Source of the DNA: a virus
Taxonomy: Duplodnaviria; Heunggongvirae; Uroviricota; Caudoviricetes
DNA length: 31,816 nt
Direction: 5' to 3' (one strand)
Virus record (IMG/VR): IMGVR_UViG_2563366912_000005
Under the pieces are notes generated by a model. The model was not told where the DNA came from. It did not search any database and worked only from the letters and a program-made list of their open reading frames with translations. Shown in pieces: positions 352 through 749 of the stretch. The first letter of the stretch is position 1, and each line of letters starts with the position of its first letter. The translations under genes were made by a program, and so were the position numbers.

Positions 352-359
352 TTCCCGCG

Positions 360-749
360 TCAGGACTTTTCCGGCGTCAGCACCTCATGCTCCAAATCCC
401 CGGCATTCTCAATGGCTCCCATACCGCTCAGCGACAGAACCATCTCCGCCCCCGTTCCCAGGGCATCATACGACCATGTTGTAATAACGGATGCGCAAAG
501 CGTCTCAACATCCTGAGACTGTTCCGCATTCCACAGTGAGCGGGAAACCAGCCAGGCATTGATATCCATCCCCATCCGCAGAAAAGCAATCTGTCGTTCA
601 GCCTCCGGCAGTTCTCCCTCTTCGGCATCAAACTTTGCCGTTCGCTGCTGAACAAACGCCAGATATTCAATTCTCTGCAGCCCGGACAGCTCACTGAGCA
701 CCACGGACTGCTTTTCATAATTAAACGTGCCCTGTTTCAGAAACATCAT
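360..749 (-). CDS. Tail assembly chaperone, lambda gpG-like
   Basis: Translation [32 protein letters not shown] resembles lambda gpG as recalled; lies between major tail protein and the T frame; start taken at the internal Met pair. Confidence 0.75.

Follow-up and report, generated by a model that had tools for sequence, protein, structure and literature searches.

A GGAAAAG heptamer as the probable programmed −1 frameshift site of a lambda-type G/GT cassette in an mEp460-like prophage

The G/T cassette and its IS100-truncated end

The DNA analysed here, referred to as the window, is a stretch of 31,816 nucleotides from a tailed phage (IMG/VR record IMGVR_UViG_2563366912_000005). Its G/T DNA is 97–99.7% identical to that of phages phi458, Ayreon, cdtI and mEp460, and the window is an mEp460-like prophage without distal tail genes within the window. 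At its right end (30521..31816) lies a phage integrase gene, with Arm-DNA-bind_2 and Phage_integrase domains, and at its left end a T gene cut by IS100. The G/T pair of this prophage family was found in 1825 of the 5426 complete E. coli genomes. Elsewhere in the window, a single ORF on the minus strand (3227..5200) contains both a ClpP-type protease domain (PF00574) and a capsid protein domain (PF25209), and looks like a protease–major capsid fusion. In addition, an ORF of 823 aa in the early region (27706..30177) carries a C-terminal Rv2179c-like 3'-5' exoribonuclease domain (PF16473).

Gene G lies on the minus strand (749..360), from an ATG at 749..747 to a TGA stop at 362..360, and its translation is a tail assembly chaperone of 129 aa. 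The ORF matches the Pfam family Phage_TAC_2 (PF06894, the lambda gpG family) with an E value of 2.3e-39 over profile positions 1–116 of 126, and it is 99% identical to G of phage Ayreon, which is annotated as 'tail chaperone GpG-like protein'. Directly upstream of G, on the same strand, is the lambda-type tail tube gene V (807..1550), whose product, the major tail tube protein, carries a Big_2 domain at its C-terminus (Pfam Phage_TTP_12, E 4.6e-66; Big_2, E 1.7e-11), the gene order being V-G-T. Between V and G, the minus strand holds an intrinsic-terminator-like, GC-rich hairpin, GCCCCGGTTATCCGGGGC, followed by the T-run TTTTTT (769..786). A rho-independent terminator is annotated likewise at the V-G gap in mEp460, Ayreon and N15. 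This hairpin could lower the transcription of G/T/H relative to V.

The T frame is −1 relative to G. On the minus strand it is closed upstream by a TGA at 387..385 and is then open from 384 down to a TAA at 3..1, in agreement with an earlier sequence-only reading of this DNA, which had described the frame as open from just past a TGA near 385 to beyond the G stop. The last G codons on this strand are ACG, CCG (374–372), GAA (371–369), AAG (368–366), TCC (365–363) and TGA (362–360), and that reading had likewise given the end of the frame correctly, from CCG to TGA. G and T overlap by 22 nt (384..363), the sequence of which is GGTGCTGACGCCGGAAAAGTCC. Since the TGA at 387..385 closes the T frame upstream and the overlap is this short, the shift from G to T must fall inside these 22 nt.

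The ORF in the −1 frame overlaps the end of G and contains a domain of the gpT family (Phage_tail_T, PF06223, E 2.4e-14). Its T-domain coding segment of phage origin, which a ribosome would read once it had slipped into the −1 frame (61..366, minus strand), has 102 codons, ends in GEGISG and matches mEp460 T as far as window position 61. In Ayreon, which is 99.5% identical to the window, the T ORF is named 'GpGT-like'. When the conceptual G-T fusion (...TPEK followed by VLTREMQF...) was aligned with lambda gpGT, one continuous HSP ran across the junction (E 5e-36), and the slip-site Lys of the fusion aligned on the slip-site Lys of lambda gpGT. This residue (K128) does not vary among seven diverse G proteins that were aligned, and lambda G is alignable too.

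Homology to the mEp460 family ends at about position 60 (break 60/61). Positions 1..60 are the terminal 60 nt of IS100 (IS21 family), identified by their identity to IS100 ends and inserted in the 3' end of T. Specifically, a 62-nt stretch recurs with 100% identity as an IS100 end at hundreds of unrelated places, where it adjoins istA/istB, and the IS100 terminal repeat is seen again at 20918..20937. The insertion lies on a codon boundary, and 19 foreign codons plus the TAA (3..1) replace the conserved GG[V/I]R[Y/F] C-terminus of T. The earlier reading had recognised the frameshift signal of the G/T pair and had missed this truncation of T at 60/61. In intact relatives, whose G/T DNA is up to 99.7% identical to that of the window (97.7% in mEp460), a tape measure gene follows T. 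The window itself has none: T is broken by IS100 at 60/61, and there the window ends.

The remainder of the T 3' end was searched for elsewhere in the window, as a test of IS100-mediated inversion, and was not found there. The prophage early region contains a complete IS100 copy in inverted orientation (20918..22871; istA 21004..22026, istB 22023..22805), and the missing T 3' end does not adjoin it. The ORF at 19276..20937 (DUF7380) may be disrupted, since it runs 20 nt into this internal copy.

In conclusion, as far as sequence can show, the cassette has the hallmarks of the lambda G/GT family, except for the tape-measure neighbour. The present T copy is probably defective and the frameshift signal itself is probably intact. 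The T product is likely to be non-functional, because its conserved C-terminus has been lost to IS100 and the window holds no tape measure gene, and the frameshift product can very probably no longer serve this genome in building tails.

The heptamer and its conservation across G/T loci

The 22-nt overlap contains a single candidate slip site, the heptamer G_GAA_AAG (372..366, minus strand), which reads ..G GAA AAG in the zero frame and GGA AAA G in the −1 frame; it is the sole Z_ZZN or X_XXY_YYZ-like motif of the overlap. The chance of encountering this heptamer is ~8e-5 per position per strand, and ~5e-4 over the ~6 in-phase positions of the overlap. The bare GGAAAAG sequence occurs in 10 copies on the two strands of the window, against 5.3 expected. 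As the bare heptamer is not rare, the evidence must rest on phase, position and conservation.

The sequence-only reading had proposed an alignment with related G/T loci in the search for covariation. Among close relatives this yielded nothing: none of 80 IMG/VR loci falls below 98% identity or varies at the slip site, and such near-identity makes them uninformative. Diverged loci, in which base 1 of the heptamer does covary, were gathered instead by a tblastn search of a phage collection and a scan of genome contigs, with one genome per species, plus the window. The phage collection provided loci of Gifsy-2, Stx1a and Stx2a phages, mEp043, phi80, Klebsiella Kp4865-4, N15, LLS and lambda. Species genomes provided those of Xenorhabdus, Atlantibacter, Serratia, Symbiopectobacterium, Superficieibacter, Enterobacter, Pseudocitrobacter, Phytobacter, Pluralibacter, Buttiauxella, Trabulsiella and E. 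albertii.

Loci L115–L127 lie on short contigs, often of ~1x coverage, from Neobacillus, Kitasatospora, Shewanella, Pseudomonas, Leeuwenhoekiella and others. Their G matches the window G at 33%, as that of lambda does; the two loci that were read, L115 and L116, are identical to lambda, and the whole group looks like lambda DNA contamination of assemblies from unrelated organisms. Locus L091, from a 'Bacillota' MAG, is a 98% identical copy of the E. coli prophage G.

At all of the 32 G/T loci the same number of bases separates the heptamer from the conserved T motif LAREF, without a single indel, and the heptamer of the window is in exact register with those of the 31 other loci, including the experimentally defined GGGAAAG of lambda. 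Its sequence is GGAAAAG at 22 of the 32 loci, GGGAAAG at nine and AAAAAAG at one. The earlier statement that the window heptamer differs from lambda GGGAAAG was borne out when the lambda sequence was read for comparison. The label 'non-canonical', applied in the same reading, is appropriate against the strict X_XXY_YYZ rule, from which G_GAA_AAG departs in that its first three bases (G_GA) are not identical; it is less so within the family, where GGAAAAG predominates and the N15 and LLS records mark it as a slip site.

The GGAAAAG loci form 12 clusters that share <85% nt identity. Throughout these clusters Glu is encoded by GAA and Lys by AAG, codons that account for 60% of Glu and 29% of Lys codons, respectively, in the structural genes of the window. 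The codon preceding the heptamer is CCG, CTG, GCG, ACG or GTG (P, L, A, T or V), and its third base is always G. Column by column, the G tail upstream is hypervariable and the heptamer forms a sharp island of identity. Furthermore, in several lineages with equally short overlaps (25–28 nt including the stop) the heptamer is the sole candidate. Its exact positional conservation across 12 diverged clusters rules out chance. A working slip site at which the P-site tRNA re-pairs would show this pattern, and the protein sequence in neither frame would account for it.

A homopolymeric A run exists at the slip site, and slippage of RNA polymerase on it would be another route to a fusion. Where productive transcriptional slippage is known in bacteria, however, it needs about seven or more repeated bases, and the run comprises just four A's; moreover, the conservation of the 5' G, the 3' G and the codon phase suits tRNA re-pairing. 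We assign this route a vanishingly small probability.

The same data bear on the reading of T as an independent gene, translated from the in-frame ATG at 351..349, five codons past the slip point, with the heptamer being incidental and no frameshift taking place. Both mEp460_012 and the RefSeq 'phage tail assembly protein T' CDS (PGAP) begin at this ATG. Nevertheless, the sequence before it offers a weak Shine-Dalgarno match, at −4.3 kcal/mol, with no spacer to the ATG. Gifsy-2, Xenorhabdus, Atlantibacter, phi80, N15 and lambda have no ATG at that position, and their T frames offer no start before LAREF. Between the heptamer and the ATG, the T-frame residues are kept in relatives (GKVL...), and the synonymous-site and third-base constraint at the heptamer is not explicable by protein coding. 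In lambda, the T sequence is reportedly made only as the GT fusion. No independent translation start for the T domain is conserved, the ATG at 351 being lineage-specific. Independent initiation of T at this codon was rejected on its poor Shine-Dalgarno match and lineage-specific ATG, and appears highly improbable.

Base 1 of the heptamer covaries with the P-site codon: wherever that codon is GAA or GGA (31 loci) the base is G, and at the single AAA locus it is A. Taken as comparative sequence evidence, this covariation is the signature of P-site re-pairing, and the strict conservation of the 5' G lends comparative support to such re-pairing through a central G·U. It also bears on the possibility of a real frameshift in which the A-site tRNA-Lys slips alone on A_AAG, as at sites of the NNA_AAG type (IS1222 G_CGA_AAG). 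Indeed, A_AAG alone supports −1 shifting in E. coli (PMC4066793), NNA_AAG sites are used in nature (PMC5009743), and the re-pairing from GAA to GGA is not fully Watson–Crick. Yet base 1 is G at 31 of 31 GAA/GGA loci despite being the third position of the codons of five amino acids, a constraint that makes sense only with re-pairing of the P-site tRNA or with some other role for this base. Slippage of the A-site tRNA alone is thus unlikely, and tandem slippage of the two tRNAs at a low level is the likely event at this site.

Search for stimulators, proposed mechanism and expected rate

Downstream of the heptamer, the following 96 nt fold into a hairpin at spacer 0, with z = −1.72 (12 of 200 shuffles were as good), and folding of a 181-nt context gave z = +0.19; neither value is significant. 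On 15 diverse loci, RNAalifold returned a consensus of −2.26 kcal/mol with seven trivial pairs and essentially no covariation. A conserved 3' stem-loop or pseudoknot stimulator was rejected on the basis of these z-scores and of the empty RNAalifold consensus.

On the upstream side, a Shine-Dalgarno-like GAGGUG (381..386, minus strand) lies 8 nt 5' of the heptamer (10 nt for GAGG) as a possible stimulator. Its duplex with the 16S 3' end is worth −6.9 kcal/mol, compared to −6.4 for G's own ribosome binding site. The element is not conserved: a strength of at least −5 kcal/mol is reached in five of the 12 GGAAAAG clusters and at none of the GGGAAAG loci. Nor does it exceed the background, in which 23% of the windows taken within G attain −6 kcal/mol. 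An upstream Shine-Dalgarno-like stimulator, neither conserved nor enriched, is therefore unsupported family-wide. A conserved 3' structure and/or a 5' Shine-Dalgarno sequence, by which stimulated bacterial −1 frameshifting of the dnaX/IS3/IS911 type is recognised, was not found at this site. We regard it as improbable that, in the window, Gifsy-2, Phytobacter and Superficieibacter lineages, GAGGUG offsets a weaker P-site re-pairing and so tunes the G:GT ratio; if it did, the site would be a lambda-type G/GT signal that, unlike the others, is stimulated, with a dnaX-like spacing of GAGG.

All together, the gene identities, the lambda-homologous position, the nucleotide-level constraint and the continuous gpGT alignment argue for the central proposal of the sequence-only reading, namely a programmed −1 frameshift site of the gpG/gpG-T pair. 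The heptamer is very probably an ordinary site of this kind, in a lambda-type G/GT cassette of an mEp460/cdtI-like prophage. Most ribosomes would translate G and stop at the TGA at 362..360, and a small fraction would move by −1 base with GAA (tRNA-Glu) in the P site and AAG (tRNA-Lys) in the A site. In the A site, tRNA-Lys (mnm5s2UUU) would pass from AAG to AAA with perfect re-pairing; this one-base backward slip in an A-AAG context, which had been suggested from the sequence, is accepted as central to the mechanism. In the P site, tRNA-Glu (anticodon 3'-CUU*-5') would pass from GAA to GGA via G:C, a central G·U and A:U*. After the slip, reading would continue as GTC CTG ACG..., and would yield a protein in which the T domain is joined to G. 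If its two parts act as they do in lambda, that of G would bind the tape measure protein and that of T would recruit the tail tube protein.

As no conserved RNA stimulator was found, a low efficiency is expected, of a few percent or less, with the heptamer as its main determinant. No other tetramer shifts nearly as readily as A_AAG in E. coli, and reporters carrying tetramers alone gave 0.147% versus a background of 0.112% (PMC4066793). In lambda, GT is the frameshift-derived product, tail assembly requires it, and a large excess of G over GT (~30:1) is needed (PMC5009743). A low rate is probable here because tetramers alone are barely shifty without a stimulator, and it fits the lambda G:GT excess. 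The accessible literature contains no frameshift rate or fusion-protein measurement for G_GAA_AAG in this gene family.

Prior annotation and comparison with known frameshift systems

In the GenBank record of N15, the misc_feature at 10027-10033 is GGAAAAG and is described as a 'slippery sequence for -1 translational frameshift'. The LLS record contains a joined chaperone CDS together with the misc_feature 'minus-one programmed translational frameshift site GGAAAAG', and in Gifsy-2, where the site CCGGAAAAGTCCTGA is identical to that of the window, the annotation of T reads 'part of G+G' frameshift hybrid protein'. In the lineage of the window itself (mEp460, cdtI and RefSeq prophages), T is a separate CDS with no join.

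The records of mEp460 and of E. coli ESY002 have T beginning at the internal ATG, with no ribosomal-slippage join, and those of N15 and LLS mark the site. This inconsistency in the annotation of T touches about one third of the complete E. coli genomes.

The GGAAAAG slip site is already known in kind and in detail, and it is a common variant of lambda GGGAAAG. A joined G-T CDS would be the more accurate annotation for this very common E. coli prophage family. In addition, predictors limited to X_XXY_YYZ miss the majority form in enterobacterial lambda-type cassettes. Beyond annotation the result has little import, the G/GT frameshift being a textbook recoding event.

The recognised classes of −1 sites include NNA_AAG hexamers and 'intermediate' heptamers, which stand between these hexamers and the full X_XXY_YYZ form and count G_GA among their X_XX (PMC5009743, Atkins et al.); the window heptamer fits this intermediate class. 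For phage chaperone genes, the PRFect paper describes 'twofour' motifs as well as a Glu tRNA that re-pairs on GGA through G:U (PMC10885494). Sites of the A_AAG and NNA_AAG kind were studied by Licznar et al. 2003, as summarised in PMC5009743. In IS1222 (G_CGA_AAG) and B. subtilis cdd (A_CGA_AAG), tRNA-Lys(mnm5s2UUU) likewise moves from AAG to AAA after NNA (PMC5009743). Unlike these NNA_AAG sites, the window site has a conserved 5' base that would allow partial re-pairing in the P site, and it behaves as a heptamer. Moreover, the IS sites have strong pseudoknot, stem-loop or Shine-Dalgarno stimulators, of which none was found at the window site.

A closer parallel for the P site is the 'intermediate' G_GAU_UUY of insect-specific flaviviruses, dianthoviruses, umbraviruses and mesoniviruses, in which GAN re-pairs on GGA with a middle G·U (PMC5009743). 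These RNA viruses differ in using eukaryotic ribosomes, U_UUY A-site codons and strong 3' structures.

The A_AAA_AAG site of E. coli dnaX has the A-site codon and tRNA in common with the window site. The dnaX site has proven Shine-Dalgarno and stem-loop stimulators and a shift of ~50%, and the spacing of its Shine-Dalgarno sequence is comparable to that of the window's GAGGUG at 8 nt (GAGG at 10 nt). Unlike that of dnaX, the Shine-Dalgarno-like element of the window is neither conserved nor above background, and no conserved stem-loop accompanies it.

The nearest known system is lambda G/GT, with its −1 frameshift on G_GGA_AAG (Levin, Hendrix & Casjens 1993; Xu, Hendrix & Duda 2004, 2013, 2014; cited in PMC5009743). 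Shared with lambda are the homologous G and T domains, their order after V, the −1 geometry and the homologous slip codon pair, as well as the A-site AAG and the post-slip residues K-V; a conserved stimulatory structure is found in neither. The window differs from lambda in its P-site codon, GAA (Glu) instead of GGA (Gly), so that re-pairing on GGA needs a central G·U. It differs also in its overlap, which is 22 nt against 61 nt in lambda, and in that its G stops one codon past the heptamer. Finally, the G/T pairs of N15 (genes 14/15), LLS (genes 11/12), phi80, mEp043 and Gifsy-2 have the identical GGAAAAG at the identical position, with G proteins whose identity to that of the window is 33% in the N15/phi80 group and 55% in Gifsy-2.
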